In this document: positions 5,551 through 43,531 of the stretch, piece by piece | Position numbering within the stretch: position 1 is the stretch's first letter | Layout of the letters: each line of letters begins with the position of its first letter | Virus record (IMG/VR): IMGVR_UViG_3300045988_019982 | Direction: 5' to 3' (one strand) | DNA: 44,188 nucleotides | Source: a virus | Taxonomy: Duplodnaviria > Heunggongvirae > Uroviricota > Caudoviricetes | Translations under genes and position numbers: made by a program | The notes under the pieces: model-generated | Told to the model about the DNA's origin: nothing | The model's database searches: none | The model's input: only the letters and a program-made list of their open reading frames with translations

Positions 5551-5859
5551 ACTAAAGAGGGCCGCGTACAGAAATACGCAAAAGAGCGATTCGAGGCCAT
5601 TGGTGGCCTCATTCGTAAACTTTCCTACGAGGGGCGCTCCGGCGCTCCCGACCTGCTGGTAATTCTCCCCGGGGGCATCGTCTGGTTCGTCGAGGTGAAG
5701 AAAGACGAAAACACGAAGCCAGACCCGCACCAGCTACGTGAGCACGAGCGGATGCGCAAACGCGGTGCAAATGTTTTTGTCGTTGGGTCGTTTAAACAGG
5801 TTGACGACCTAATAGCGAACTATTATAGTTATCCGTACACCAACAATATAAGGAATTGA
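5548..5859 (+). CDS. VRR-NUC domain nuclease
   Basis: 103 aa; GAPDLLVILPGGIVWFVEVKK (D...E-x-K core) then QLREHERMRKRGANVFVV. Confidence 0.65.
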   Translation: MTKEGRVQKYAKERFEAIGGLIRKLSYEGRSGAPDLLVILPGGIVWFVEVKKDENTKPDPHQLREHERMRKRGANVFVVGSFKQVDDLIANYYSYPYTNNIRN

Positions 5860-5862
5860 GAA

Positions 5863-6054
5863 ATGAAATACGAATATGGCTGCAAACCAGCACGTGACAT
5901 CGTACCGGGCGACATGATTTTCAACGTTAAGACCCGCCAGCCTGTTGCCGTTGATACGGTGTTCGTAGAGTCTAACGGTAAACTGGTAATCGAAGATGTA
6001 ACCGGTAACGTTACGGCGTTCGGACGTAAAGAGTTGGTGCTGGTGGCCAAATGA
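5863..6054 (+). CDS. hypothetical protein (63 aa)
   Basis: ATG with GGAATTGAG upstream; stop overlaps MTase start. Confidence 0.5.
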   Translation: MKYEYGCKPARDIVPGDMIFNVKTRQPVAVDTVFVESNGKLVIEDVTGNVTAFGRKELVLVAK

Positions 6055-6995
6055 ACTATTACAACGAATGGGATAAAGGCGCAGCCGCGTGGCTGCGTGA
6101 ATTAATAAAACAGGGCCACATACCTTTTGGAGTTGTAGATGAAAGAAGCATTACCGAAGTTAAGCCAGAAGACCTTGACGGGTTCACCCAGTGTCATTTT
6201 TTCGCTGGCATCGGCGGCTGGCCTCTCGCGCTCAGACTTGCGGGAGTTTCGGAAGATACGCCTCTCTGGACGGGAAGCCCGCCTTGCCAACCGTTTAGCG
6301 CGGCAGGAAAACAACTCGGACAGTTCGACCCGAGACACCTCGCGCCAGTCTTCCTCGACCTCATCAGCGAGTGCCACCCTCCAGTCCTCTTTGGGGAACA
6401 GGTTGCGCCAGCAATTGCAAAATCGTGGATGTGCGATTTACAAACTCACCTGGAAGGAGAAGACTACGCCGTCGGGTTTGCCGTACTCCCAGCTTGTAGC
6501 GTCGGCGCTCCGCACAAAAGAGAACGACTCTTCTTTGGTGCGTACCAACTGGCCTGCACCGACAGCGAACGATTACAAAGGGAGCGGAGAGACTGTTATC
6601 CGCAAGGACGGGAAGGACAGAACATTCGACAGGCTGGACTACTCAACGGAACAGGGGCTAAAACTGACGAATTGGCCCACCCCTCGCAGTTCGGATGGGG
6701 AAAAGAACGTGAGAACACTAGAGGGGGCGCTATCGGAGATTCAGAGGAAGGGTGGGCCTCAAGACGTGGCACAAGCGGCGGCGATAACACAACTAATTCG
6801 CATCACGGCTTCTGGTCAGATGCTGACTGGCTCGGATGCCGGGATGGAAAGTTCCGGCCAGTTGAACCCGACACATTCCCGCTGGCTAATGGGATACCCG
6901 CCAGAGTGGGACGATTGCGCGGTTACGGCAATGCCATCGTCCCGCAAGTAGCCGCCGAATTTATAAAGGCGTTTATGGGGGCCGTAAATGAGTAA
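6051..6995 (+). CDS. DNA (cytosine-5)-methyltransferase, possibly frame-disrupted
   Basis: Motif I FFAGIGG, IV SPPCQPFSAAGK, VI FGEQV, VIII HKRERLFFG, X GYGNAIVPQVAAEFI in this frame; central third is low-complexity while frame +1 (6541-6951) reads like a real domain. Confidence 0.65.
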   Translation: MNYYNEWDKGAAAWLRELIKQGHIPFGVVDERSITEVKPEDLDGFTQCHFFAGIGGWPLALRLAGVSEDTPLWTGSPPCQPFSAAGKQLGQFDPRHLAPVFLDLISECHPPVLFGEQVAPAIAKSWMCDLQTHLEGEDYAVGFAVLPACSVGAPHKRERLFFGAYQLACTDSERLQRERRDCYPQGREGQNIRQAGLLNGTGAKTDELAHPSQFGWGKERENTRGGAIGDSEEGWASRRGTSGGDNTTNSHHGFWSDADWLGCRDGKFRPVEPDTFPLANGIPARVGRLRGYGNAIVPQVAAEFIKAFMGAVNE

Positions 6996-8412
6996 GTTTC
7001 AAAGGCGCGAATACCAGAAGCTCATGACTTCGTTCATGCTGCAACATCCGCGCTGTAATATTTGGGCGAGCATGGGCGCCGGGAAGACCGGCAGCGTACT
7101 GTGGACATTAAACCGACTGTTCCGCAACGGCCAACTTAATGATGACGACCGCGTGTTAATACTCGCCCCGCTGCGCGTTGCGTCCGGCACATGGCCCGCA
7201 GAACAAGAGAAATGGCAATTCCCATGCCTGAATGTCGTCGATGCTACCGGTTCAGAGAAGCGCCGCATCACGGCGCTGGAGTCAGACGCCAATGTGATTT
7301 GCATCAACTACGAGGTCATAGACTGGCTTATTGACTATTACGGCGTGGATGACTGGCCATTTACTGTAATAGTCAACGATGAAAGCACGAAATTGAAATC
7401 ATATCGTAGCCGTTCCGGGGGGAGCAAGCGGGCTAAGGCACTTAGTAAAGTAGCATTCAGAAATGTTAAGAGGTTGATAAACCTTACTGGTACGCCATCG
7501 CCAAACGGCCTCAAGGATTTGTGGGGCCAGAACTGGTTTATAGACGCTGGCGAGCGACTTGGTTCTTCGTACACGGCATTCACCGACCGCTGGTTTAACT
7601 CGGTACAGAAGGGCAAATCAGCTATGGCGCGCGAGTACCACGCCCGCCCTGGCGCAGATAACGAGATTCACCAGAAGATGAAGGATATTAGTCTCACTAT
7701 TGACGCTGCCGAGTGGTTCGGCTGTGAAGCGCCGATTATCGTTCCTGTTGAAATCGACCTGCCGAAGAAAGCACGTCAGGCGTACATTGATATGGAGGAG
7801 AAGTTATTCGCGGAACTGGAGAGCGGGGAAGTTGAAGCGGCTAATGCAGCAGCGAAGACGTCGAAGTGTTTGCAGATTGCCTCTGGTGCCGTGTATGTAT
7901 CGGGGCCAGACGGTGAAGCAACCAAAGACTGGGAGAAAGTGCACGACACGAAACTGGATGCGCTCGAGTCGATTGTTGAGGAGTTACAGGGCGCTCCGTT
8001 ACTGGTGGCCTATCAGTTTAAGCACGAACTGGAACGTATCCTTAAGCGTTTCCCACAAGCTCAGGCGTTTGCCAAAGGTGCGAAGGGCAATAAGCAGATG
8101 GAGGCGTGGAACCGTGGCGAAATACCTATGCTCCTGATACACCCCGCCTCCGCAGGCCACGGGCTGTCGCTACAACACGGCGGGCACCACATGGCCTTTA
8201 TGAGTCAGGGGTGGAACCTGGAACATTATCTGCAGGTTATCGAGCGTATAGGCCCAGTAAGGCAGATGCAATCTGGGTATAAACGGTCTGTATTCATTTA
8301 TCAAATAATAGCCCGAGATACTCTTGATGAAGTTGTTGCCGCGCGTACCGACGAGAAAAGGTCCGTACAGGACGAACTACTTAATTATATGAAGCGCAGA
8401 GGTAAGAAATGA
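6988..8412 (+). CDS. superfamily 2 ATP-dependent helicase
   Basis: 474 aa; Walker A ASMGAGKTGS; box II VIVNDESTKLK; ATG overlaps MTase stop. Confidence 0.75.
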   Translation: MSKFQRREYQKLMTSFMLQHPRCNIWASMGAGKTGSVLWTLNRLFRNGQLNDDDRVLILAPLRVASGTWPAEQEKWQFPCLNVVDATGSEKRRITALESDANVICINYEVIDWLIDYYGVDDWPFTVIVNDESTKLKSYRSRSGGSKRAKALSKVAFRNVKRLINLTGTPSPNGLKDLWGQNWFIDAGERLGSSYTAFTDRWFNSVQKGKSAMAREYHARPGADNEIHQKMKDISLTIDAAEWFGCEAPIIVPVEIDLPKKARQAYIDMEEKLFAELESGEVEAANAAAKTSKCLQIASGAVYVSGPDGEATKDWEKVHDTKLDALESIVEELQGAPLLVAYQFKHELERILKRFPQAQAFAKGAKGNKQMEAWNRGEIPMLLIHPASAGHGLSLQHGGHHMAFMSQGWNLEHYLQVIERIGPVRQMQSGYKRSVFIYQIIARDTLDEVVAARTDEKRSVQDELLNYMKRRGKK

Positions 8413-10582: not shown

Positions 10583-13165
10583 TTAACTAAAACCGTTGCT
10601 GAATCCGCCGGAGAAACCGCTACCGAAAGGCGCGACGCCGTCGTATTTATAGAAATCTGCTTCGTAGTTAATCCCGGTAATCTTAACCGTTCTGTCGTCT
10701 CCGGGGTCAACTGTAGAAACAAGAATCATCTGAGCATTATGCCTTGCTTCGTTGCCGAATGAAAACTCAGTTTTTAGTGCGCTATTCCCTGTGTATATCG
10801 CCTCCTGCGGCGCAGAGAGCATAACCACTTCACGGTCGTGGCTTCCAGGCACAACGGCAACACTTTGAACTCCACCGTCTCGCTTCTTAAGAATAAGTGA
10901 GTGGTCGTCTCCGGGGGTAAATGTAATAGGTTGTGATAGCGTCAGCGCAAGCCCATTAACGGCAACAACATAGCCATCTTGCGGGGCCATACGCGAACCT
11001 TTTACCACACTTACCGCACGCCCAGGCATTGCAAAAATCCCTTCTTCTGTCGCTGTGAATGATACCGTTACCTTCTTCAACAGGTGTTTCTGGTAGCGGC
11101 GGTACGCAGCCCAGTACGCCTGTTGATAATTACGGATACCTTTAGAGTCGTACGTTTCAGTATTAACGCCACCTTCTGCGGGGATGCTGATTGTCTCTTT
11201 GACGTTTGTATTCGGGTCGATGTACGAAAACTTGAGACTATCGTATACCTGGGCGTCATTAAACGTGCGCGTCCATTTCTCAGTAGCTGGGGTCTTGCTG
11301 CGATGGGTAAACACCATCTCAGGGCCGATGCGAGGGCGCTCGAAGTCCAGAAGAATATCGGCGCCTCTGCGGTATGGGGTGCAGAAAATTGCTTCCGCTA
11401 TCGTAGTTACTATGTCCTGCATAGTGGTTTTATAGTCATCAAACGTATAGCAAAACTCTCCTGCGGATGTGCTGCCGAAATAGCTTTCAATTTCGTTCTG
11501 CACGGCCAGCAGTTTATCCATATTTGCCGTTGTCAGGTTCAGTGCGCCAACTTCCGGGTCTCTGGCGAGGCGAATGAGGGACTGGGTGGCCTTCGTGTTC
11601 GGCGTGCGAACTGTGTCGAAAACTCCGTTACCGAGGTACTTAAATACCATCTCCGTCACCACCATGCGCAACTGAGGTTGTTTAACCTCCGCCGCTCGTG
11701 GCGTCTGTTTACGCGCGGAATGCACTGTCGTTCGGTTACCGTAGTGCGGGGTTCGGTCGACTAATTGCCCGTAAAGATTTATATAGGCCACTTCATCGAC
11801 TACTGTACCCTCAAAATCAAGGTCCAGATTGGTGACACGACGCGCTCTCACTCTTACACGTGATACGGACGGCAGGTCCGCATATATAGTAACCCCAGTA
11901 TAATCGGCAGACCTTCCGGAAACTGTCCCTTGTTTAGTGTAAACAGGGCCGTAAGCGCTCCCTGTTTCATCTAAAAGCTGATACTGCAGCTCTACGGTCA
12001 CTGCAGCCCTGGATTTATTGTCCCCATTGTCTTTGTACATACCATTCGTAGCGCCAATGTTGGCCACGATTCTTTCTACTGCAATTCTGTTTATAGCAAC
12101 CCAATCGGTGAGGCTGGCCGAGGTGGTATCTAGCGGGCCTATAGTTGACTCTGGTTCATTAGATTGTATTTTATAGCCGCCCACAGGCAACTTCTGCCAT
12201 TGAGATAGTGCCGGTGTGGCATCTACCCTAATCTCCGTCTCGCTTACAGAAATGCATGTGTAATTCCCATCAAGAATGGCGTCCGTTGCTGGGTTTGGGC
12301 TGCCGGATACCCAGCAATGTATACCGATGAATTTAACGGCCATACCCACTTTGATAAAGTCACTAAACCCGGCGTCCCCAGTTGGGTCGGTTACTGTGCC
12401 AGTTGTTCCCTCCAGTTTCGCAATAGATAGTTCTCTCGTTACAGGCGACGCAAGGTCGTTAGGTGCTTTCAGCACCACACCGTCCACTTCATTGGACGCA
12501 ACAGTGATGTAAAGCCCTTGTGTAATGGGGCTTCCGACCATTAATTGTGGGGCGTTTGTGTTGTTCGGAGAGGTGTACGGAGCGTACACCGCCACAGACG
12601 TGCCGGTTATATCCCGGACCTTAGTATCGCCGTCGGTGATGTCTTCTGCTTTAACGTCAAGATACCCGCGCCCCGCATCATAATAACCGTACTCGATGAT
12701 GCGACCAGCGTCATCGAAGACTTTATATGTAGTCATAAGGTTATTAGGTATTGTCTGCACCCTGCCGCAGATGTCATAAGTTCGCTCGTAAGGGCGAGCC
12801 TTGTTATTTCGGTCTGTCAGACTGTTGTTCGGTGAGTCCGCTTGCTGGTTAGCAAGATTGTTAGACGCGCCCTTCGTTGACGGTGTGAGTAATTTAGCTA
12901 GCGGTTTAAGGATGATGCTGAACACTTTCATCACACCCTTGATAGCACCGCCACCAGCACCTTCCAGGATGTGGAAAACCGCATCCTGTTTTAACGCGTC
13001 GAAATTTTCTGTTACGTCGTTATCCTCCCCTATCTCTTCGAGGAAAACGCGAAACGGCACACCGTCAGGGATATGGTTTACGACGAAATTAAGCGGCGAG
13101 TCGTTATGCCGTTTTTGTGTGAATGTCCCGTCTTCGTTACGGGTGTAGTGGATGACTATCGCCAA
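10583..13165 (-). CDS. tail tip / central fibre protein (lambda J-like)
   Basis: 860 aa directly downstream of K/L/M-like genes; TTG start with GGAG SD (track start). Confidence 0.65.
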   Translation of the reverse strand: MAIVIHYTRNEDGTFTQKRHNDSPLNFVVNHIPDGVPFRVFLEEIGEDNDVTENFDALKQDAVFHILEGAGGGAIKGVMKVFSIILKPLAKLLTPSTKGASNNLANQQADSPNNSLTDRNNKARPYERTYDICGRVQTIPNNLMTTYKVFDDAGRIIEYGYYDAGRGYLDVKAEDITDGDTKVRDITGTSVAVYAPYTSPNNTNAPQLMVGSPITQGLYITVASNEVDGVVLKAPNDLASPVTRELSIAKLEGTTGTVTDPTGDAGFSDFIKVGMAVKFIGIHCWVSGSPNPATDAILDGNYTCISVSETEIRVDATPALSQWQKLPVGGYKIQSNEPESTIGPLDTTSASLTDWVAINRIAVERIVANIGATNGMYKDNGDNKSRAAVTVELQYQLLDETGSAYGPVYTKQGTVSGRSADYTGVTIYADLPSVSRVRVRARRVTNLDLDFEGTVVDEVAYINLYGQLVDRTPHYGNRTTVHSARKQTPRAAEVKQPQLRMVVTEMVFKYLGNGVFDTVRTPNTKATQSLIRLARDPEVGALNLTTANMDKLLAVQNEIESYFGSTSAGEFCYTFDDYKTTMQDIVTTIAEAIFCTPYRRGADILLDFERPRIGPEMVFTHRSKTPATEKWTRTFNDAQVYDSLKFSYIDPNTNVKETISIPAEGGVNTETYDSKGIRNYQQAYWAAYRRYQKHLLKKVTVSFTATEEGIFAMPGRAVSVVKGSRMAPQDGYVVAVNGLALTLSQPITFTPGDDHSLILKKRDGGVQSVAVVPGSHDREVVMLSAPQEAIYTGNSALKTEFSFGNEARHNAQMILVSTVDPGDDRTVKITGINYEADFYKYDGVAPFGSGFSGGFSNGFS

Positions 13166-17715: not shown

Positions 17716-17745
17716 TTGCACACCCCAATATAATAGGGTACTATT
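17716..17745 (+). promoter_or_regulatory. promoter copy A (TTGCAC-N17-TACTAT) with AATAG-ggta-CTATT inverted repeat
   Basis: ttgcacaccccaatataatagggtactattcacc; 19/19 identical core (ataatagggtactattca) with copy B. Confidence 0.6.
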
Positions 17746-17769
17746 CACCTGTAACTTACTGAGGAAATA

Positions 17770-18099
17770 ATGATGCGTAAATTAGTATTAGCTCTGGGGT
17801 TTATGTCTTTTGCTGCTTTTGGGTCCCCGTGTGAACAGGTATTTAGTGAATCGGTTCTTATGACTTCTGGTGTGCTTGAGAAAGCCGACCCTACTATTGT
17901 AAAGGCATTTAAGGACTCTACCGTTCGCGAGTGTGAGGCCGCCGTAGAGGTTGGTAAATCTGGCCTACCTCCGCAAGCCGTAACATACTCGGTAATACGT
18001 TCGGTAGAGAAAAACGGAGACGCGTTTTACAGCCTACTGACCGCCACTCGTCTGCAAATGGTAATGACTGGGTGGGCGATAGGCGCGGAAAGTAAATAG
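17770..18099 (+). CDS. secreted/periplasmic small protein (signal peptide)
   Basis: MMRKLVLALGFMSFAAFGSPCEQ...; GAGGAAATA SD; first gene of the opposite-strand cassette. Confidence 0.55.
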   Translation: MMRKLVLALGFMSFAAFGSPCEQVFSESVLMTSGVLEKADPTIVKAFKDSTVRECEAAVEVGKSGLPPQAVTYSVIRSVEKNGDAFYSLLTATRLQMVMTGWAIGAESK

Positions 18100-18164
18100 T
18101 CGCCTTTATTTAAAGGAATGCACTGTGGTTAAATAGGACAAATCCTAAACACGAGGAAGTAAGC

Positions 18165-19295
18165 ATGGCCCGGAAGAAAATAACCGACGAACAGTTACAG
18201 GAAGAATTGAACGCCGGAATGAAGAATATCGATATAGCCCGTAAATACGGCATCTCAGACCGCGTTATTCGTATCCGTAAAGCGAAGCTGGCTAAGAAAG
18301 GCGTGGGCCACGGGCGCGACGTTAGCCACCTTGTCCCGGACGGCTACAAGATTAAAGGGACGTCGTCTCTGGTAGACGAGTTCGGCAACACTAAGTTGCA
18401 ATGGGTTAAGACAGACACCGACGCTGAACGTCAGGTCGAGTTGATGAAAGCCGTGATTGAAGGCATGAAGTCAGAGATTACGCCAGTTGCGCCGGCTAAA
18501 GCGACTCGAGCCAAACGCGACGACAAGCTACTCAATCTTTACACGGTATCTGATTTCCATCTCGGTATGCTTGCCTGGGCCGACGAGAGCGGCGACGACT
18601 GGGATATAAAGATTGCGGAAGACCTGTTCTCTCGTTGGTTCGACGCGGCGTTTCAGAAAGCACCGGATGCAGGAACAGGAGTTATTAACCTGCTGGGTGA
18701 TTTCGCGCACTTCGATAGCCTGGATGCCGTTACCCCTGAGTCGCGCCATGTGTTAGACGCAGACACTCGCTACCAGAAACTTGTCCGCTACATGATTCGT
18801 ATGGTCCGCCGTGTTGTTGATATGGCGCTGGTTAAACATAAAACCGTCCGCTTGCTTATCGTGCAAGGGAACCACGACCCTGTAGGGTCTGTATGGCTGG
18901 CGGAAATGTTCACGACTTTATACTCAAACGACAGCCGAGTGATTGTTGACACGTCGCCGGATGTTTACAAGATGGTGCAGCACGGCAAAACGACGCTGTT
19001 CTTCCATCACGGGCATAAAGCACGCTTCGACGCTATCGAACCGGTTATGATTGCCAAGTTCCGCAAAGCGTTCGGGGAGAGTGTCTATAGCTACGCCCAC
19101 GTAGGCCACCTGCACCACCAGAAGATTGTAGAAAGCCGTAACATGATTGTTGAGCAACACCGCACCTTAGCGGCTAAAGACGCATACGCCTCCCGCGGCG
19201 GATGGATGTCAGGCCGCAGTGCAAATGTGATTACTTATAGCGCCGAATATGGCGAGGTCGCACGTTTAACCATTTCTCCGGAGATGCTGGGATGA
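18165..19295 (+). CDS. calcineurin-like metallophosphoesterase with basic, possibly DNA-binding, N-terminal segment
   Basis: N-term IDIARKYGISDRVIRIRKAKL; phosphoesterase motifs LGDFAHFD, QGNHD, FHHGH, VGHLHH. Confidence 0.65.
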   Translation: MARKKITDEQLQEELNAGMKNIDIARKYGISDRVIRIRKAKLAKKGVGHGRDVSHLVPDGYKIKGTSSLVDEFGNTKLQWVKTDTDAERQVELMKAVIEGMKSEITPVAPAKATRAKRDDKLLNLYTVSDFHLGMLAWADESGDDWDIKIAEDLFSRWFDAAFQKAPDAGTGVINLLGDFAHFDSLDAVTPESRHVLDADTRYQKLVRYMIRMVRRVVDMALVKHKTVRLLIVQGNHDPVGSVWLAEMFTTLYSNDSRVIVDTSPDVYKMVQHGKTTLFFHHGHKARFDAIEPVMIAKFRKAFGESVYSYAHVGHLHHQKIVESRNMIVEQHRTLAAKDAYASRGGWMSGRSANVITYSAEYGEVARLTISPEMLG

Positions 19296-19777
19296 AAGAT
19301 ATTGTAATTTTCGATTTAGATGGGACATTGGCGGATGGTACACATCGTTTACACCTGCTGCCGAAAGATAACTACAACGAAACATGGGCGTGGAAGCCAT
19401 TTAACATGGCGTGCAAAGATGATGAGCCAATTAGAGATAATATCGAACTATGTAACGCCCTTAATCGGCGATACGCCGTTATTATTTTAACCGGTCGCAG
19501 TGATGACGCAGAAAAAGAAACCAGAATGTGGTTGCAGCGCCACCGCGTCGAATTTTATCAGCTAATCATGCGCAGCAAACACGACAACAGAAAAGACATC
19601 GTAATTAAAGAAGAGGTGTTGCGCGCTATCGGGCTGGAAAGAATCTTGTGTGCGTTCGATGATTCTCCGGCGGTAATTAAGCACTTCCGTGCCCTCGGCC
19701 TAACAACACACGCAGTCACCGAATATGACTGCAACGGGACCTCTACACACGTAAAACCACACGGGAGCGATAAATAA
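19292..19777 (+). CDS. HAD-superfamily phosphatase
   Basis: Motif I IVIFDLDGTL; motif II IILTGR; later FDDS; ATGA overlap with upstream gene. Confidence 0.65.
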   Translation: MKDIVIFDLDGTLADGTHRLHLLPKDNYNETWAWKPFNMACKDDEPIRDNIELCNALNRRYAVIILTGRSDDAEKETRMWLQRHRVEFYQLIMRSKHDNRKDIVIKEEVLRAIGLERILCAFDDSPAVIKHFRALGLTTHAVTEYDCNGTSTHVKPHGSDK

Positions 19778-20331
19778 TGGCTAAGGTAATTATTCTTAAT
19801 GGCCCGGCGGGTTGTGGGAAAGACACACTCGCTATGGCGCTGGTAGAAATGGGCTTTGCGAAGGGAACCGCCAGTTTCAAGAATCCAATGTTCAATATTG
19901 CTTTGGCAGCGTTGGGCCCGGATGCTTACCGCGAATTTCTCGACGGCTACGACGACCGGGCGCGGAAAGAAAGGCCAGAGGGTTTCCTTAATGGGCTGTC
20001 TCGCCGCCAGTTCATGATTGCCATTTCTGAGCAATTCATTAAACCAGTATTCGGCGATGATTATTTCGGTAAGTATCTTGCAGGAAACTTGCCCGACGGC
20101 GACGAAGTTTTTGTAGTGTCCGACGGTGGGTTCGCCAGCGAAGTAGCCCCTATCGTCGCCGCAGGTCATGATGTAAGAATCGTTCGCTTGCACCGAGACG
20201 GCTATACGTTTGACGGGGATAGCCGCGGTTACCTGTACGATGTTGGTGGTGATGAAGATTATGATGTATACATCATACCCGGTGACGTTAAATCTAACGT
20301 TATAGACATTGCTCTAAAATTAGGCTTGTAA
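19777..20331 (+). CDS. P-loop nucleotide/polynucleotide kinase
   Basis: Walker A ILNGPAGCGKDT near N-terminus; 184 aa; start overlaps HAD stop. Confidence 0.65.
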   Translation: MAKVIILNGPAGCGKDTLAMALVEMGFAKGTASFKNPMFNIALAALGPDAYREFLDGYDDRARKERPEGFLNGLSRRQFMIAISEQFIKPVFGDDYFGKYLAGNLPDGDEVFVVSDGGFASEVAPIVAAGHDVRIVRLHRDGYTFDGDSRGYLYDVGGDEDYDVYIIPGDVKSNVIDIALKLGL

Positions 20332-27310: not shown

Positions 27311-27353
27311 AGCTTAGCACATTTTCAGTGAAAAGTCAACTATTCGAATAGTT
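27311..27353 (-). promoter_or_regulatory. candidate spanin promoter with palindrome AACTATTCGAATAGTT
   Basis: On - strand TTGACT-N17-TAAGCT; 16-bp perfect palindrome at 27338-27353 overlaps the -35. Confidence 0.35.
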
Positions 27354-27405: not shown

Positions 27406-27435
27406 TTGCAGACACCAACATAATAGGGTACTATT
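27406..27435 (+). promoter_or_regulatory. promoter copy B (TTGCAG-N17-TACTAT) with AATAG-ggta-CTATT repeat
   Basis: ttgcagacaccaacataatagggtactattca; core identical to copy A. Confidence 0.6.
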
Positions 27436-27469
27436 CATTACATCGAAACGAGAGATGAGGAATTTAAAG

Positions 27470-27682
27470 ATGAAAGAGTTAATTATCGCGGTATTGACGA
27501 CATTGGCAGTTTCACTGGTAATTGCCGCGGGTGTACGTAGCTTAGATAAACATGGGTGCGAGAACTACGGAGATATCACAGGCAGAGAGGTAATGTATAG
27601 TTACGCAACTTGTTATGTAAAAACTGATAGAGGTTTTATCCCTCGTGAAGAACTTAATTTTAGAGCAGCGACACATAAATAA
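27470..27682 (+). CDS. small membrane-anchored protein, single-gene insert in head module
   Basis: MKELIIAVLTTLAVSLVIAAGV (signal/TM) then Cys-containing domain; own promoter and terminator; opposite strand to flanking head genes. Confidence 0.55.
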   Translation: MKELIIAVLTTLAVSLVIAAGVRSLDKHGCENYGDITGREVMYSYATCYVKTDRGFIPREELNFRAATHK

Positions 27683-27687
27683 AACTA

Positions 27688-27705
27688 AGGCCCCGTTTGG
27701 GGCCT
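27688..27705. terminator. bidirectional terminator hairpin
   Basis: AAGGCCCCgtttGGGGCCTT; same hairpin family as 8551 and 20337. Confidence 0.65.
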
Positions 27706-27709
27706 TCTA

Positions 27710-28171
27710 TCATTCTGGCTTAGTAACCTTCGCCGCTTTGCTTACCGCCTCTACGCCGCCGGCATCGGTAACTTTAACGAAGTATTCGCCAACCGCGTTA
27801 ACCGTCAGAGACAAAGCCTCTTCTGGTGCGTTTACAACTTCCTTCCCGTCTTTGTACCAGGTCAGCGCATATGGAGCTTTACCGGCCTTAACTTCGACAG
27901 TGATAGTTGCGCTGCCGTCTGCCAGTTCAGCGTCTTTCGGTTGCACAGAGAAATACACGTCTCCAGCGTCCGCCAGATACGGAATTTCGTAAAGCATACC
28001 CGCCGCGGGGAGCGCAATACCGGTTTTATCCGCAAACGGCATATCGTCTACTGAGGTACCCAGTACACTTTCGTCCTCAATAAACGCCACGTTCTCGCCA
28101 GAGCCAGACACGCGAGCATACTGGACTACGCGACGCGACGGTACATCAGTTACTTTGAAAAAGCCCATCAT
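27710..28171 (-). CDS. head-associated protein with Ig-like C-terminal domain
   Basis: 153 aa; C-terminal ATITVEVKAGKAPYALTWYKDGKEV...EYFVKVTDAGG. Confidence 0.45.
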   Translation of the reverse strand: MMGFFKVTDVPSRRVVQYARVSGSGENVAFIEDESVLGTSVDDMPFADKTGIALPAAGMLYEIPYLADAGDVYFSVQPKDAELADGSATITVEVKAGKAPYALTWYKDGKEVVNAPEEALSLTVNAVGEYFVKVTDAGGVEAVSKAAKVTKPE

Positions 28172-29247
28172 TATTCCCCTTTCAGATAATCAGCAACACG
28201 TTTATCGAGTTCCGCCATCTGCTTAAGCGTGAGCGGATTCCCGAAACCATCTACAGATATTACGCGAAACTCTTCCGGTGATATACCGCTGTTGCGGAAA
28301 ATCTTACCGCGGGTCGGCCCGAGTGCTTCATCCTGAAACCATGCCGGTTGTTGTTTAAGGAACTCGTAATAGGTGGTGTCTGCGCTTACCTGAGTACCAC
28401 CTTCTGCACCCTTAGCTGCGCGTTTCGCGCCTTTATCGAGGAAGTCGAACTCGGAACTGATTACCGGGGCCGTGCACGACCGACAATTCGGATGGGCGGG
28501 GGGCATCGGCCCCTTACCAATTTCCCACGTCATTCCGTCTCTGGCCCTGCAAATCGTACTGGTACGGCTGTCAAGCGTTGACACCCATTCGTACTTCTCG
28601 ATGATGTCGTCGTTCTGGCGGTACGTCTCGTTGCGGGCTTCATTGGACACGTGAGACAGCGCGGTGCGGATTACTGTAGCGGCGTTGCGTTCAGAGATGT
28701 CCGCCAGTCCGCCAGCGCCTACGACATTCTTAACAATCTGCCGTGTGGTTTGGCCTTGAACAAAACCCATCTTAACACCGGTTACAAGGCGCGCTACCTC
28801 CGTTTCCCCCCAACCTGACATCAGCTTGGTGAAGTCGACTGGTTTGTCGCTTAACGATAAGGGTTGAAACTCGGCAGCGGCCCAAACCTGTTCGGCGGTA
28901 GGCGTAACAAATTCCGCGTCTACGTTGGCCGTCAGTGTCTTTACGTTCCACTCAGCCTCGTACGCTGCCAGTTCTTTGAGGTCTTCTGTCAGCTTTGTCT
29001 GCCAGTCGTCCGTAAGCCCAGCCAGTGCTTCTTCCAGGTCGCGTAACAGTTTATTCAGTCGCGCTGTGCTGCGACCGTCGTCACCGAACAACAGCACCTG
29101 CCGTTTGATTTCGTCCCGCATTTCCTGAAGGAACGGTGCGAGTTCTTTCACTTCACCGGATGCGGTGCGTTGCAGCCATATCTGATGGCTGATTAGGGAT
29201 GTAAGTAAGCTCATAGATAAACCCTGTGGCGCTAAAGTTAATAGCAT
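28171..29247 (-). CDS. head morphogenesis protein (Mu F / SPP1 gp7-like)
   Basis: 358 aa directly downstream of portal gene; conserved-looking HPNCRSC motif. Confidence 0.65.
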   Translation of the reverse strand: MLLTLAPQGLSMSLLTSLISHQIWLQRTASGEVKELAPFLQEMRDEIKRQVLLFGDDGRSTARLNKLLRDLEEALAGLTDDWQTKLTEDLKELAAYEAEWNVKTLTANVDAEFVTPTAEQVWAAAEFQPLSLSDKPVDFTKLMSGWGETEVARLVTGVKMGFVQGQTTRQIVKNVVGAGGLADISERNAATVIRTALSHVSNEARNETYRQNDDIIEKYEWVSTLDSRTSTICRARDGMTWEIGKGPMPPAHPNCRSCTAPVISSEFDFLDKGAKRAAKGAEGGTQVSADTTYYEFLKQQPAWFQDEALGPTRGKIFRNSGISPEEFRVISVDGFGNPLTLKQMAELDKRVADYLKGE

Positions 29248-29283
29248 ACTATAAGAAAGCCCCTTTCGGGGCTATATGCGGAC

Positions 29284-32548: not shown

Positions 32549-32646
32549 AGAATCCCCTTGCATATGCGTCTGACCATCAGAGCGCACCAGACGCGCCCTA
32601 CGCGTCTAAAGGGATTATATAAGGGGATTGGGCGGGATGTACAGAA

Positions 32647-33546: not shown

Positions 33547-33783
33547 TCAATCCTCAATACTTAATAGCACGTACCCCGGTAGGTAAGCCCCTACGTCAGC
33601 AACATGAATAACGCGGCGGTAAACGATACGGCCTGTGTATTCACCGTTTTCGTATTCTCTCAGGCACAGAGTGTCGTCTTCCTTAAAGTCGCGGTCGTTT
33701 AATCGAAGTTCCGCCAGCTTAATGCCCGCCAGAACAGGCGCAAAATGCTCAGGTAATATCTTTAGCTCATGGAACATAATCAC
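33547..33783 (-). CDS. ASCH/DUF3850-like small protein
   Basis: MIMFHELKILPEHFAPVLAGIKLAELRLNDRDFKEDDTLCLREYENGEYTGRIVYRRV matches DUF3850-type pattern as recalled. Confidence 0.5.
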   Translation of the reverse strand: MIMFHELKILPEHFAPVLAGIKLAELRLNDRDFKEDDTLCLREYENGEYTGRIVYRRVIHVADVGAYLPGYVLLSIED

Positions 33784-35104: not shown

Positions 35105-35133
35105 AATATAGTAGGGTCGATGGTAATAGTCAA
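35105..35133 (-). promoter_or_regulatory. sigma70-like promoter (TTGACT-N17-TATATT), - strand
   Basis: Reverse complement reads ttgactattaccatcgaccctactatatt; contains TACTAT like the other copies. Confidence 0.45.
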
Positions 35134-35164
35134 CTAGTCATTACAGAAAATAGATAAAAAAAAT

Positions 35165-38040: not shown

Positions 38041-38072
38041 TGAATAGTAGCCTATTCTATCTTAGTGTGCAA
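38041..38072 (-). promoter_or_regulatory. promoter copy C (TTGCAC-N17-TACTAT), - strand, with GAATAG-tagc-CTATTC repeat
   Basis: Reverse complement ttgcacactaagatagaataggctactattca. Confidence 0.6.
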
Positions 38073-38342: not shown

Positions 38343-38410
38343 TAAGACACAAAGACAAATAGTAACCTATTGACCTGTTACACCAGCGACGGCGGCTCGG
38401 GTAACGGCAT

Positions 38411-39638: not shown

Positions 39639-39670
39639 TGAATAGTATCCTATTATGCTGGGGCGTGCAA
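39639..39670 (-). promoter_or_regulatory. promoter copy D (TTGCAC-N17-TACTAT), - strand, with GAATAG-tatc-CTATT repeat
   Basis: Reverse complement ttgcacgccccagcataataggatactattca. Confidence 0.6.
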
Positions 39671-40044
39671 GAGAATAGTTACGTTGCCGTTGTGATTCTT
39701 TCGTTTCTTAAAAGAGTACGCAACGCAGTGGGTGGGCGTTAGCCCACCCCAGCGGAGTGAAGTACTCTCCGCCTTGCTCACGGCAACTGTAGAAACTTTT
39801 AATTATCAGTGACTTAAGAGGTATGATGCCGATGAGAATAGAGCTTACCCAGGGCAACCGGAGATACAAGGAAGGAAAGTTACGGTAATTCTTATGTTCA
39901 GTAATCTGCCGCTTAACACTTCGCTTGCGCTTTGGCGCCGCTGCGTTTCAAGCGGGTATTACAAGGTGAACAGGAATCAAAGTAACTAAGATATAGAAGC
40001 ACCTTAAACGAAGATTTTCATAATGTCAATATGTGCGATTATGT

Positions 40045-40073
40045 TTGATTTCCCATTATTCGCAATGTATACT
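40045..40073 (+). promoter_or_regulatory. sigma70-like promoter (TTGATT-N17-TATACT) for the + strand operon ending with primase
   Basis: ttgatttcccattattcgcaatgtatact. Confidence 0.5.
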
Positions 40074-40105: not shown

Positions 40106-40276
40106 ATGACACAGAATGAGGTAGCTGAGCGTATCGGGGTTACTCGTCGCACACTTAATAACTGGTTAAAGAGTGGGAAGTTCCCGGATTGTTGTATCCG
40201 TATTATGGGTCGCCGTCAGCCAGGTACGTTCGACCCGGAGAAAGTGGAAGCGTGGATTAAGGAGAACGTGAAATGA
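40106..40276 (+). CDS. small helix-turn-helix DNA-binding protein
   Basis: MTQNEVAERIGVTRRTLNNWLKSGKFP is a classic HTH; ATG at 40106 with GAGGG SD. Confidence 0.55.
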   Translation: MTQNEVAERIGVTRRTLNNWLKSGKFPDCCIRIMGRRQPGTFDPEKVEAWIKENVK

Positions 40277-40506
40277 CCGAATTTCAGTCGCGCGTATTTA
40301 CGGCGGTCGTTTCGTTAACACGTAAAAAAGGGTCATGCAGTGTTATCGACTTGCGCCGTAGTTATTTTAAGTACTATAGTTCAGCCATTATTGAAGGGTC
40401 GTTGAAAGTGCTGGTTAAATCGGGTGTCGTGAAAAACGTTGGCGGGAAATATAACGCTGTTGCTGAAGTTCGCGGAATGACCGCTACTTTAGAAGACCTG
40501 GAATAA
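40273..40506 (+). CDS. hypothetical protein (77 aa) ending in LEDLE
   Basis: ATGA coupling to upstream gene; C-terminus ...RGMTATLEDLE. Confidence 0.5.
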   Translation: MTEFQSRVFTAVVSLTRKKGSCSVIDLRRSYFKYYSSAIIEGSLKVLVKSGVVKNVGGKYNAVAEVRGMTATLEDLE

Positions 40507-40565
40507 AAGAAAGCCCCGACGCGGTGAACGCCGAGGCCAAATTACTTGCTGAAGGAATATACAAC

Positions 40566-42833
40566 ATGTCCGATGTAATTTTATCCTACTCGTGGTCTCG
40601 TCGCAACGCGCGGGCGGAGAAAAAGGATATAAACGTCAAAACCACACACACGGCAACACTGGACGACCTGAAAGAGCTAATTAAGCCGCTTGATGCTATT
40701 CGTGATGGAATTAACCCGAAGACCGCGCCTGGCTACATCACCGCCGCGTGTGACTCGACGCACAGCACCGTAAAAGACCCGGAAACCGGCGACTTTAAGC
40801 AGGCGCGTAAAGGCTTCTTCTATCGTTGCGACGCGTCTGTAAGCAAATCGTCACTGGCGTATCTGGATTTCGACAGCGCAACGCCGGAAGAGTATCAGGA
40901 AGCGGTGCGCCGGGTTAAGCGCAGTCGTCGCGCGATGTGCCTCTACACCACGGCATCCCATACCGATGAGTCACCGCGCTTTCGCGTCGTCATGCCGCTG
41001 GGTCGCCCTGTCGAAGGGGGTGACATCATCCGCGTACGTCACGGGTTGCTGGAACACTTCTTCAAAGGCATGGGCGCTGACCGCAGCGGGTTCACTCTGT
41101 CGCAGCCGATGTATCTGCCTCCGGTCGGCGCTACCGTTATCTGGTCGCGCCGTAACGACCTGATTGACCCGGACGAGTTGCTTGAAGGCATCCCCGACGT
41201 TGACGTTAGCAGCGCATCCGACTACCAGATACCGGAAGAACTGCGCACCGCGTTTACTGATGCGTTTGAAGCACTGGCATTCGAGTACGGCGGCATCATG
41301 ACACCCCGCGGTCTGAAAATGCCAGCTACGCCGGAACACGCAGAAAACTACAGCGACCCGACGCCGCGTCCGGATGACTTCCTGCTGTGTTTCCCGCGTG
41401 AAGGGTACGAAGCGCCGAACGTAACCATGATTCATGACACCGACATTACGGCGACCGAAGGCATGCCACCGAAAGAGGTGTGGAAGTATGCGTGCGATGC
41501 GACAGGGCTGCCGTTCAGTGAAGTTGCAGAGGCCATCGGATGGGGTGCACGTGAATCTGTTTCATGCAGCCTGGACGACCTGGAAGACGACGAGGATCCA
41601 GAGGAGGACGAGTTACCGGAACCGGTAAAGGCGGATTTCGTCGTTGAGGGGTACATGCCGTCGGATTGCATCTGGGATATCGTCGGGGAATCTGGCACGT
41701 ACAAATCGTTCTATACGCTGGGGATGATGTACCTCAGCGCCGCCGGATACCGGTTTGCGGGAGCCGATACGCAGCGTTGCCACCATTTCTATATCGACGG
41801 CGAGGGTGGTGCAGCTACGCGCACACGTATCGATGCACTCGCGGCTAAATACGGCGAGGAAGGTAAAGATTATGTACATGTCATTGACATGGGTGAAGTC
41901 GGCAAGCTGAAAAACCTGATTAAGTTGATGCGTGAAACTGCTGGCGACGAGCCAATTGGCATGGTTGCGTTCGACACCCTTAACCAGACGCTGGCCCTGA
42001 CGATTGATAAGTTTGACGAGAACAGTTCATCAACGGCAATCGGCATGGGTAAAGTCATCGCCATCCTGAAAGAAGTGCGTGACGCGACTAAAGCTGCGGT
42101 AGGCGTTGTCCACCATACGCCGAAGGGTGGAAAGAAAGCCCGCGGCAGCGGGGCGCTGTATGCGGGCGTCGACGTGGAACTGACAATTGAACGCGCAACC
42201 GACCGCCAGATAAACGTATATCACTCTAAATTTAAGCACGGGCCGCAACAGAAGACGGTCGGCATGGTGCTTGAGTCTGTACAGTTCCGTGAAGCGCCGC
42301 CGCCGAAAGAGTATCGCGCCGTTGAGTTCCTCGGTAGCACGGAGGAATACGGCACAATAGTAAACCTCGACCTGCCGGAGCCGCACAAGGCGCTTGTGCT
42401 GATGCCGTGGGGCTTCGAGCCGTTCAAGACTGACGAGGAGAAAGAGCGGGAAGAAGGTCTGACAAAGGAAGGTAAAGAAAACGTACGTAAAACCGTAGAG
42501 AACGCCGTCAACAGTTCGGAGGCCACGATACTGGCAGCGTTTGAACTGGCAGAAGGAACCTACAGCGGCAACGAAGGTATCACGGTAGCCGCAGCGAATA
42601 AGCTCGCACAGTCCGACCCTAACGCAAAGGCGTTCAACTCTAAAGAAGCCATAGAACGCGGGAAGATTAAGAAAATGGTTGAGGCCGGGTATCTTGTTCC
42701 GGGTACTGACGAAAACAATCAGATAATCCCTGGCCGTTACAGGCTGAACACCCGGATAACGGATAACAAGATTCCGAAGACAATATACGAACCGAATGAA
42801 ATGTTAACAGTGACAGAGGAGGATTTGGAATGA
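40566..42833 (+). CDS. primase-helicase (P-loop NTPase with N-terminal primase-like region)
   Basis: Walker A-like GESGTYKSF, VVHHTPKGG; ATG at 40566 with AAGGAA SD (track GTG start 40524 lacks SD); C-terminus ...VTEEDLE. Confidence 0.75.
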   Translation: MSDVILSYSWSRRNARAEKKDINVKTTHTATLDDLKELIKPLDAIRDGINPKTAPGYITAACDSTHSTVKDPETGDFKQARKGFFYRCDASVSKSSLAYLDFDSATPEEYQEAVRRVKRSRRAMCLYTTASHTDESPRFRVVMPLGRPVEGGDIIRVRHGLLEHFFKGMGADRSGFTLSQPMYLPPVGATVIWSRRNDLIDPDELLEGIPDVDVSSASDYQIPEELRTAFTDAFEALAFEYGGIMTPRGLKMPATPEHAENYSDPTPRPDDFLLCFPREGYEAPNVTMIHDTDITATEGMPPKEVWKYACDATGLPFSEVAEAIGWGARESVSCSLDDLEDDEDPEEDELPEPVKADFVVEGYMPSDCIWDIVGESGTYKSFYTLGMMYLSAAGYRFAGADTQRCHHFYIDGEGGAATRTRIDALAAKYGEEGKDYVHVIDMGEVGKLKNLIKLMRETAGDEPIGMVAFDTLNQTLALTIDKFDENSSSTAIGMGKVIAILKEVRDATKAAVGVVHHTPKGGKKARGSGALYAGVDVELTIERATDRQINVYHSKFKHGPQQKTVGMVLESVQFREAPPPKEYRAVEFLGSTEEYGTIVNLDLPEPHKALVLMPWGFEPFKTDEEKEREEGLTKEGKENVRKTVENAVNSSEATILAAFELAEGTYSGNEGITVAAANKLAQSDPNAKAFNSKEAIERGKIKKMVEAGYLVPGTDENNQIIPGRYRLNTRITDNKIPKTIYEPNEMLTVTEEDLE

Positions 42834-43027
42834 GCGGTAAATTTAAAGAAGTAAGCGACGAACTGAAAGGTAATAAATACACCAACCACAGAGGTGAAAT
42901 AGTAGAAGTTCTTAACGTAGTTCCTTATGGGCGTGGCTACCATGTTGTGTTCAGCTACACGGAGGCTTACAGCGTGTACTGCGGGTTAGGTAAGTTTCGC
43001 AAAAGATACCCGATAAAGGTGCAATAA
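42830..43027 (+). CDS. hypothetical protein (65 aa)
   Basis: ATGA-coupled to primase stop with GAGGAGGA SD (same cassette as exonuclease/2002). Confidence 0.5.
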   Translation: MSGKFKEVSDELKGNKYTNHRGEIVEVLNVVPYGRGYHVVFSYTEAYSVYCGLGKFRKRYPIKVQ

Positions 43028-43032
43028 AAAGA

Positions 43033-43051
43033 AAGGGGCGTTAAGCCCCTT
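43033..43051. terminator. bidirectional terminator between convergent genes
   Basis: aAGGGGCgttaaGCCCCTt flanked by A-run and T-rich tail. Confidence 0.6.
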
Positions 43052-43256
43052 CACCGAACGCCAGCCACTTGGCGTCTACTTGCAGCACTTCCGCCAGTTT
43101 AAACAGCGTTGCCGGTCGGACGTCCTGAGTTACCCCGAGTGCCAGTTGGTTAATCGCGCCCTGAGAAACACCAGCCAGAACAGCCAGACGGCGCTGGGAG
43201 AGGCCTAGCTCTTTACGGCGTTGTTCTACACGGATGCCTAGTTCAGATGGTTGCAT
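43041..43256 (-). CDS. Cro/XRE-family HTH transcriptional regulator
   Basis: 71 aa; LGLSQRRLAVLAGVSQGAINQLALG HTH; AAGGAG SD; own upstream region carries the TACTAT/GAATAG element. Confidence 0.7.
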   Translation of the reverse strand: MQPSELGIRVEQRRKELGLSQRRLAVLAGVSQGAINQLALGVTQDVRPATLFKLAEVLQVDAKWLAFGEGA

Positions 43257-43283: not shown

Positions 43284-43316
43284 GTGAATAGTACCATATT
43301 AATTATTTTAGAAAAG
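43284..43316 (-). promoter_or_regulatory. promoter of the Cro-like gene with operator-like GAATAG-tacc-ATATT
   Basis: - strand TACTAT -10 about 30 nt upstream of the ATG; weak -35. Confidence 0.4.
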
Positions 43317-43320
43317 CCCA

Positions 43321-43350
43321 TTGACAACATGAATAGTTCGCTATTATAGT
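43321..43350 (+). promoter_or_regulatory. divergent rightward promoter (TTGACA-N18-TATAGT) with GAATAG-ttcg-CTATT in spacer
   Basis: ttgacaacatgaatagttcgctattatagt. Confidence 0.5.
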
Positions 43351-43381
43351 TAGCCTATACCAAACGAGAGGAGAGAAACAA

Positions 43382-43531
43382 ATGACCAATAACCGCAAAG
43401 CAAAGATTCTGTTAGGCCTTGATATTGCATTTGGAACTAAAGAAACCGCACGCTATCGCGTAAGCAACAATCGTGTTGGCTTCTTCGACAAAGCGACGGG
43501 CCGGTTAGTTAAAACCGTTAAATACAAATAA
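43382..43531 (+). CDS. small basic protein (49 aa)
   Basis: Not in track; GAGAGGAGAG SD; MTNNRKAKILLGLDIAFGTKETARYRVSNNRVGFFDKATGRLVKTVKYK. Confidence 0.4.
   Translation: MTNNRKAKILLGLDIAFGTKETARYRVSNNRVGFFDKATGRLVKTVKYK

Follow-up and report, generated by a model that had tools for sequence, protein, structure and literature searches.

An Inverted Repeat on Sigma70-Type Promoters of a Kagunavirus Genome and Its Candidate Helix-Turn-Helix Regulators

Genome Organization

The inverted repeat AATAG-N4-CTATT recurs at predicted promoters of the virus record IMGVR_UViG_3300045988_019982, a stretch of 44,188 nucleotides that was analyzed over its whole length and is termed the window here. The window (44.2 kb) represents an essentially complete Kagunavirus (Guernseyvirinae) genome, from a lytic siphophage that infects E. 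coli, and has about 90% identity to K1H, K1G, and many further isolates. The coliphages and Salmonella phages that are isolated most often include Kagunaviruses and Jerseyviruses, both of which have been put forward widely for use in therapy and biocontrol. The repeat is a real, well-conserved regulatory element.

The gene map was built from the annotated relative fFiEco03 and by comparison of the open reading frames (ORFs) one by one. The replication module starts near 43382, resumes at window position 1, and extends rightward to 8412. The tail genes (17608–8585) run leftward, and the unit at 17770–20331 runs rightward and encodes a superinfection-immunity (sie)-like protein, a metallophosphoesterase, and the HAD phosphatase domain of polynucleotide kinase/phosphatase. 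The head, lysis, and packaging genes are read leftward from about 38012 to 20360, as are a group of small genes (39616–38411). The operon at 40106–43027 is rightward and encodes a 56-amino-acid (aa) helix-turn-helix (HTH) protein, a 77-aa protein, and the helicase-primase, and the gene for a 71-aa HTH protein (43256–43041) is leftward and monocistronic. Neither the 77 coding sequences annotated in the close relative fFiEco03 nor the scanned ORFs of the window include a gene for an integrase, cI, an RNA polymerase, or a sigma factor. The 71-aa and 56-aa proteins are the only recognizable sequence-specific DNA-binding proteins encoded; the other small conserved proteins of the window that were scanned have no DNA-binding domain.

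Occurrence of the Repeat

Exact copies of AATAG-N4-CTATT occur seven times in the window (at 5811, 17732, 27422, 38043, 38358, 39641, and 43332) where 0.05 are expected, and none of 100 shuffled sequences reached this number. Six further copies with one mismatch (2260, 27331, 29240, 35125, 43287, and 11479) compare with about one expected, and the copy at 11479 is probably due to chance. In an unbiased scan of every 5-mer palindrome with gaps of 0–8, the repeat ranks first in the window (seven copies, 0.037 expected) and also in fFiEco03 (seven copies), and the next-ranked palindromes are terminator stems. Eleven of the 13 sites are intergenic, although intergenic gaps make up less than 10% of the genome; of the remaining two, 5811 belongs to an internal promoter located where a gene ends, and the other is 11479. 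The core can be extended to T-R-AATAG-N4-CTATT-Y-A. All copies cited in an earlier note on this DNA were recovered, and the perfect copy at 5811 was missing from its list. With stem folding energies of only −1.8 to −3.7 kcal/mol, hairpin formation is negligible, and a role of the repeat as a hairpin or cruciform was rejected.

Three Registers on Predicted Promoters

The sites overlap consensus-type hexamer pairs at 17–18 bp spacing (i.e., predicted promoters), and the same dyad is found in three registers: over the −10 hexamer (class I), within the spacer (class II), and over the −35 hexamer (class III). In class I (TTGCAC/G-N17-TACTAT), the dyad is centered near −12.5 as numbered from the predicted start site, with the right arm within the −10 and the left arm in the spacer. 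The promoter at 17716–17747 (+) has TTGCAC at 17716–17721 and TACTAT at 17739–17744, with the 18-bp putative operator ATAATAGGGTACTATTCA at 17730–17747, the right arm of which overlaps the −10, and lies ahead of the unit at 17770–20331. The promoter at 27406–27437 (+; TTGCAG-N17-TACTAT), ahead of 27455–27992, carries the same sequence, ATAATAGGGTACTATTCA, at 27420–27437; the identical core of these two copies is 18 bp long, not 19 bp as had been noted earlier. Two promoters on the minus strand, each with 22 distinct orthologs, have TTGCAC-N17-TACTAT: that at 38041–38072 (operator AGAATAGGCTACTATTCA) heads the long leftward unit from 38012, and that at 39639–39670 (operator ATAATAGGATACTATTCA) heads the small genes from 39616 to about 38411. 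The uniform pattern TTGCAC-N17-TACTAT that had been proposed holds, as TTGCAS-N17-TACTAT, at only four promoters (17716, 27406, 38072, and 39670), and is too simple elsewhere.

At the site 17732–17745, the window also has only a weaker promoter candidate on the minus strand (TTACAG-N16-TATATT), which could serve the tail operon. The ortholog of this site in the Salmonella phage SE2 (Jerseyvirus; 33752–33765) lies between two −35-like hexamers (TTGACG upstream and, on the opposite strand, TTGCAT), which suggests two face-to-face divergent promoters with one common operator. A sigma54-like match (TAGCAC-N5-TTGCA) upstream of 17716 is seen at that copy alone, and was dismissed by eye.

In class II (TTGACN-N17/18-TATAGT/TATATT), the whole dyad lies in the spacer with its center near −18.5, and its orientation is opposite to that in class I, as judged by the slightly asymmetric flanks (TG...AT vs. 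AT...CA). The promoter at 43321–43350 (+), which heads the rightward replication-gene unit, is TTGACA-N18-TATAGT (11/12 consensus positions) with the perfect operator TGAATAGTTCGCTATTAT in the spacer, and has 26 distinct orthologs. Two internal promoters on the same strand are built likewise. That at 5801–5829 (TTGACG-N17-TATAGT) has AATAGCGAACTATT (5811–5824) in the spacer, and the genes 3′ of it (5863–8412) are a 63-aa gene, a C5 methylase, and an SNF2 helicase. That at 2250–2278 (TTGACA-N17-TATATT), ahead of the genes for single-stranded DNA-binding protein and DNA polymerase, has AATAGTTAGCTACT, which contains one mismatch in the window and is perfect in most relatives. The copies of the divergent 43284–43350 region had been described as lying across the −10 of a TACTAT promoter; at 43321 the repeat lies in the spacer instead, as it does at 5801 and 2250.

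The promoter of the 71-aa protein gene (43285–43302, −) carries the imperfect operator AATATGGTACTATT (43287–43300) over its −10, TACTAT (43293–43288). This bears out the earlier report that the gene's own promoter contains a copy, here a weakened one with one arm mismatch. The mismatch (G to T at 43296) makes the TG of an extended −10 (TGgTACTAT), and in place of the −35 hexamer that had been assigned 17 bp before TACTAT no recognizable −35 is found at this promoter. The weakened operator is invariant in 25 distinct Kagunavirus sequences. The distance between the two operators of this divergent region varies among relatives from 43 to 45 bp, so a fixed cooperative geometry is unlikely.

Class III comprises imperfect copies that contain the TTGACT −35 of promoters heading the lysis and structural operons. 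The promoter at 35105–35138 (−; TTGACT-N17-TATATT) lies 3′ of a terminator and has its −35 inside imperfect ACTAGTTGACTATT (35125–35138); this site has 22 distinct orthologs, and in the SE2 ortholog the mismatch is in the other arm. A putative promoter ahead of the leftward spanin, capsid, and tail genes (27311–27353, −) consists of TTGACT (27339–27334)-N17-TAAGCT, the −35 being inside the imperfect copy AATAGTTGACTTTT (27344–27331), and has a counterpart at 4987 in fFiEco03. The palindrome AACTATTCGAATAGTT that had been recorded at 27338–27353 in this region is present, but reads better on the minus strand, as the imperfect copy AATAGTTGACTTTT, which overlaps the TTGACT −35.

Two copies lie apart from recognizable hexamer pairs. 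A perfect copy, AATAGGTTACTATT (38358–38371, −), has TACTAT but no −35; it is directly upstream of an intrinsic terminator (38344–38323) and about 315 bp upstream of the operator of the 38072 promoter. Only 8 of some 29 related loci have this copy, which could be an auxiliary site or a relic. The portal and head-morphogenesis genes flank a one-mismatch copy, TATAGTATGCTATT (29240–29253, −), which is located just 3′ of a terminator, has no evident −35, and is also in the PHIRE list for phage Golestan (PMC7203180). Conversely, two plausible promoters lack the element: TTGATT-N17-TATACT at 40045–40073, ahead of the operon of the 56-aa HTH protein and helicase-primase, and TGTACA-N18-TATAAT at 32643–32614, ahead of the terminase genes. 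A lone AATAG half-site occurs upstream of the −35 of the former, in the region 40035–40045 (TCAATATGTG in the window, TCAATAGGTG in most relatives), and is kept in SE2 too.

The elements have been listed before. The seven PHIRE-predicted conserved promoters of Golestan are these elements at syntenic positions (PMC7203180, Suppl. Table S4), and so are the seven PHIRE sites of fBC-Eco01, with consensus tgAATAGTa-ccTATTat-T, which were ascribed to "the phage-encoded RNA polymerase" (PMC9825357). Dyad symmetry, operator function, and a link to the HTH proteins are in neither genome paper (PMC7203180; PMC9825357), and the element sequence is already published under a wrong label (PHIRE "phage promoters"). 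Selection by PHIRE as repeated 20-mers in both fBC-Eco01 and Golestan is what speaks for promoters of a phage-encoded polymerase. However, PHIRE finds repeated words only, the elements are embedded in sigma70-type −35/−10 pairs with optimal spacing, and the absence of a polymerase or sigma gene described above effectively refutes the label.

Conservation Among Guernseyvirinae

The repeat was compared among 54 loci around homologs of the 71-aa protein and three whole genomes. Sites were sorted by flanking context into orthologous sets, and distinct sequences were pooled (45 for class I, 68 for class II). Among palindromes, the dyad ranks first in each of the 28 Kagunavirus loci and in almost every Jerseyvirus locus, and is kept at syntenic promoters in both genera, whereas it is absent from all four Cornellvirus-type loci examined. 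In the pooled sets, each arm position carries 1.6–2.0 bits, even inside the spacer, whereas the central 4 bp and the neighboring spacer positions do not exceed about 1 bit; in class II, the center takes the form of 13 different tetramers. Among orthologs of the 35133 promoter, the dyad, −35, and −10 are fixed, and the spacer 3′ of the dyad varies. Between genera, the operator-free 40045 promoter keeps its hexamers, and half of its spacer has changed; within Kagunavirus, this spacer is uninformative as a conservation control because the region is invariant there.

In SE2, the element is TAATAG-N4-CTATTA, with three exact copies compared with 0.003 expected. At a class I-type promoter of this phage (TTGAGT-N17-TACTAC), both arms have changed symmetrically to ATAGTAG-AGTA-CTACTAT (SE2 12334–12351). 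The outer flank base is T in all 29 Jerseyvirus half-sites, and G or T in Kagunavirus. The half-sites are laid out as 5-4-5, with about one helical turn between their centers. Taken together, the conserved arms, free center, several registers, and symmetric variation indicate a site that is read by a dimeric protein, not by RNA polymerase alone. The view of the earlier note that a dimeric regulator's operator is superimposed on sigma70-type promoters is thus supported by the conservation of the arms, the three registers, and the occurrence in two genera.

The same data bear on the explanation that there is no regulator, and that the element is a promoter cassette for host RNA polymerase alone, spread by duplication, in which the dyad is a by-product of AT-rich, −10-like sequence. 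The arms do look like −10 hexamers (TAATAG, CTATTA, TACTAT), all strong copies overlap a promoter, and the class I copies share sequence beyond the dyad (TTGCAC-ACCCCAA), as duplicated cassettes would. However, RNA polymerase reads no sequence in the promoter spacer, and in class II the arms within the spacer exceed the −35 in conservation, with the central 4 bp free to vary. A pure RNA polymerase recognition element is further disfavored because the dyad occurs at three offsets and in both orientations; the orphan perfect copy at 38358, which has no −35, and the symmetric double-arm variant in SE2 also argue against this explanation, which we regard as unlikely.

Binding by a host transcription factor common to E. 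coli and Salmonella would account for the same core in phages of both hosts, and the TrpR operator, ACTAG-N4-CTAGT, has the same geometry as the dyad. However, we know of no enterobacterial factor with an AATAG-N4-CTATT consensus, Cornellvirus infects Salmonella and yet lacks the motif, and the phage has its own repressor-type protein with a matching autoregulatory layout. Such a factor is therefore very improbable.

In Cornellvirus, the gene for the Cro-like homolog of the 71-aa protein immediately precedes that for the helicase-primase, both being on one strand. In the Salmonella phage FSL SP-031 of this genus, ATTAS-N4-STAAT-like dyads overlie a TAATAT −10 at several promoters (10989, 14067, 14682, 26545, and 33281). 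As a Cornellvirus-specific operator, ATTAS-N4-STAAT was rejected: nine matches compare with about four expected, and the count is the same in the window, which served as negative control. A second palindrome of SP-031, GAATAA-N1-TTATTC, was rejected because it is not located at promoters.

The 71-aa Cro-Like Protein

The 71-aa protein (43041–43256, −) is an XRE/HTH_3 protein and the best candidate binder. It matches Pfam HTH_3 with 48.9 bits (cut-off 23; E 6.6e-13) and the PHROG family phrog_4, "transcriptional repressor" (2.7e-11). Its best relative of solved structure is phage 434 Cro, to which residues 6–68 align end to end (E 3.6e-7; about 40% identity). The AlphaFold2 monomer model (pLDDT 78.7) is a five-helix globular fold (helices at residues 5–17, 21–28, 32–39, 48–57, and 62–66), with the helix-turn-helix at helices 2–3, and Foldseek matches it to 434 Cro (2cro/3cro), the 434 repressor, 1pra, P22 c2, SinR, HipB, and C proteins including C.AhdI with TM scores of 0.7–0.8. 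Relatives of the 434 Cro, P22 c2, SinR, and C-protein types bind to dyad operators as dimers.

The operators of 434 are 14 bp long, with conserved outer bases and an uncontacted, variable center, and the Gln that opens the recognition helix contacts adenine 1. This Gln is kept in the 71-aa protein, and position 1 of the operator here is A; by analogy, the same contact may be made. The segment GVSQGAINQLALGVTQDV of the recognition helix is invariant in every Kagunavirus homolog, down to 78% identity, and the operator is likewise invariant within the genus. A search for Cro-like homologs with the same helix outside the subfamily gave Kagunavirus-like contigs only.

The resemblance to 434 extends to the whole arrangement: the protein has the same length (71 aa), aligns end to end, and has the same five-helix fold in the model; the dyad is 14 bp long with the outer 5 bp conserved and the central 4 bp variable, and overlaps sigma70 promoters; and the divergent control region has two operators, the weaker of which is on the gene's own promoter. 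However, the half-site is AATAG here and ACAA in 434, this lytic phage has no cI partner, integrase, or lysogeny module, its operators are scattered over about a dozen promoters and not clustered as triplets at OR and OL, and the variable 43–45 bp spacing gives no fixed cooperative geometry. The C proteins (C.AhdI and C.BclI) are also small XRE-type dimers with dyad "C-boxes" that overlap promoter elements (TM about 0.7 to the model). Unlike the sites here, which are genome-wide and have no restriction-modification context, C-boxes control only the C protein's own operon, and C proteins activate at low and repress at high concentration via two adjacent sites.

The 56-aa HTH_17 Protein

The 56-aa protein (40106–40276, +) is the rival candidate binder. 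It matches Pfam HTH_17 with 31.6 bits and a PHROG family annotated "excisionase and transcriptional regulator," and its model is a bare MerR-like winged helix without a dimerization element. Weak matches (E 0.02–0.1) are to BldC, excisionases (Xis, RdfS), the RacA DNA-binding domain, and MerR N-terminal domains. Between Kagunavirus and Jerseyvirus, the protein is 87.5% identical, and the putative recognition helix, TRRTLNNW, is the same. No HTH_17 gene was found in the Cornellvirus loci by tblastn, and homolog searches found none outside Kagunavirus and Jerseyvirus.

The earlier note had named both HTH proteins as candidate binders, and both proposals have gained support: the 71-aa protein as a full-length relative of 434 Cro with a weakened copy on its own promoter, and the 56-aa protein by a distribution that tracks the motif across genera. 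Because of this distribution, the 56-aa protein is a serious rival. Two monomers of it bound head-to-head on the dyad might repress or modulate the other units, a possibility that carries appreciable weight but is clearly the less probable of the two. It would fit the identical TRRTLNNW helix in the two genera that have the motif, the confinement of homologs to these genera and their absence from the motif-less Cornellvirus loci, and the operator-free promoter at the head of the helicase-primase operon, as expected of an immediate-early master regulator. However, the helix is changed to SPMTLNRW in K1H and to TRQTINNW in many Kagunaviruses, with identical operators. The HTH_17 likeness to BldC, Xis, RdfS, and the RacA DNA-binding domain, which the model shares, also points elsewhere: BldC and excisionases bind to direct repeats as head-to-tail multimers, whereas the site here is an inverted repeat, and the bare winged helix, with its weak matches to standalone relatives, has no means of dimerization in the model. 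Finally, binding by the 56-aa protein would leave the strongly conserved Cro-like protein without an enriched genomic target.

When the operator was compared across the three genera with the recognition helix of each HTH protein, covariation gave conflicting signals as to the binder. The Cro-like protein is ranked first as candidate, with HTH_17 as a serious second.

Proposed Mechanism of Control

On balance, the repeat is probably the operator of a phage-encoded dimeric HTH regulator, most likely the 71-aa 434-Cro-like protein, acting on host sigma70 promoters. Pairing the one orphan dimeric-repressor-type protein with the one enriched non-terminator palindrome of the genome is the parsimonious solution, and the weakened operator on the gene's own promoter is a classic autoregulatory layout.

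On infection, host sigma70 RNA polymerase would initiate at all of the operator-bearing promoters, and the small regulator would build up through transcription from the extended −10 promoter of its gene. Bound as a dimer, it would keep RNA polymerase off. It would first fill the perfect operators that overlie the −10 or the spacer in the early and replication units, turning these units down. At a higher level, it would fill its own weaker site, reducing expression of its gene in the manner of Cro in lambdoid phages, and perhaps also fill the imperfect −35 sites of the lysis and structural promoters.

Several points weigh against this reading. Over the three genera, the presence of HTH_17 tracks the motif better than does that of the Cro-like protein. 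The recognition helix of the latter is SQGAINQ in Kagunavirus and SQSLITH in Jerseyvirus (four positions differ), whereas the operator core is the same and only the outer flank has changed; conversely, the Jerseyvirus and Cornellvirus helices are alike, yet Cornellvirus lacks the motif. A literature search on Guernseyvirinae gave no study of binding or of transcription mapping. In the class I hexamers, only 7 of the 12 positions agree with the sigma70 consensus, although TTG and TAnnnT at optimal spacing are kept, and because of this the class I promoters may not be simple constitutive ones. Moreover, the imperfect copies on lysis and structural promoters are unexplained by plain early shut-off. 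The class I hexamers and the copies on late promoters together imply that the regulatory logic may exceed simple early shut-off.

If the Cro-like protein is the binder, this is most likely a conceptually familiar Cro-style circuit, its operator set on the host-type promoters of a lytic phage, and ordinary phage gene control. More speculatively, in this strictly lytic siphophage without RNA polymerase, sigma factor, or known activator, one regulator and one dyad might run the whole temporal program by graded, concentration-timed shut-off, through perfect early and replication operators, weakened −35 operators of the lysis and structural units, and a self-limiting weak operator on the regulator's own gene; or the 56-aa HTH_17 protein might act head-to-head on the palindrome. 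We hold this pair of possibilities as tentative at best. In the latter case, the binding mode and the role as a global regulator would be new for the HTH_17 family.

The operator reading corrects an annotation error that is spreading through genome notes, and yields a regulatory map in which the controlled units are set apart from two uncontrolled promoters (40045 and about 32643). The compact repressor/operator pair and the graded set of promoters could serve the engineering of these phages.

Leader Sequence and Other Features

The heptamer AACGAGA lies 11–12 nt 3′ of the −10 at five promoters (27447–27453 and 43363–43369 on the plus strand; 39630–39624, 38032–38026, and 35092–35086 on the minus strand), upstream of and separate from the Shine-Dalgarno sequence. 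It has 17 copies in the window compared with 5.9 expected, a number reached in none of 100 shuffles, and in Jerseyvirus SE2 it likewise follows class I promoters. Possible roles are those of a conserved initially transcribed sequence or of a signal for translation or processing.

A further explanation for the dyad involves this leader: the dyad would be the loading site of a processive antiterminator of the Q/AlpA type, which works with AACGAGA and reads through intrinsic terminators. The class II site lies between the −35 and −10, as do the QBE and ABE elements, the leader is conserved in position after five promoters, terminator-like sites number 30 compared with 17.5 expected, and one candidate binder belongs to the HTH_17/AlpA-related clan. 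However, AlpA is a multi-helix protein that binds as a monomer to a 6-bp asymmetric element, and it requires in addition a pause element that resembles a −10, lies in the initially transcribed region, and has A at position 2 and T at position 6 of its consensus (CACGAT) (PMC9371919). In AACGAGA the T is missing from position 6, the element on this genome is a dyad, and the 56-aa protein is too small for an RNA-exit-channel nozzle. The features that define a Q/AlpA loading site in PMC9371919 are lacking here, and this explanation was rejected as exceedingly improbable.

The segment between the 39670 and 40045 promoters (39670–40073) is about 400 bp of non-coding DNA, and holds the GC-rich hairpin GGGTGGGC-N4-GCCCACCC (39730–39749) and a 24-nt imperfect direct repeat. 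Iterons and other HTH_17 targets were sought in this segment and none was found, and Rfam gave no match to it; an origin region or a non-coding RNA may lie here.

The methylase gene just 3′ of the 5801 promoter is a 314-aa ORF (6051–6995, +) whose product is a C-5 cytosine DNA methyltransferase (Pfam 3.7e-16). The ORF is a strain-specific insertion: fFiEco03, SE2, and FSL SP-031 lack a counterpart, and fFiEco03 has a homing endonuclease at that position.

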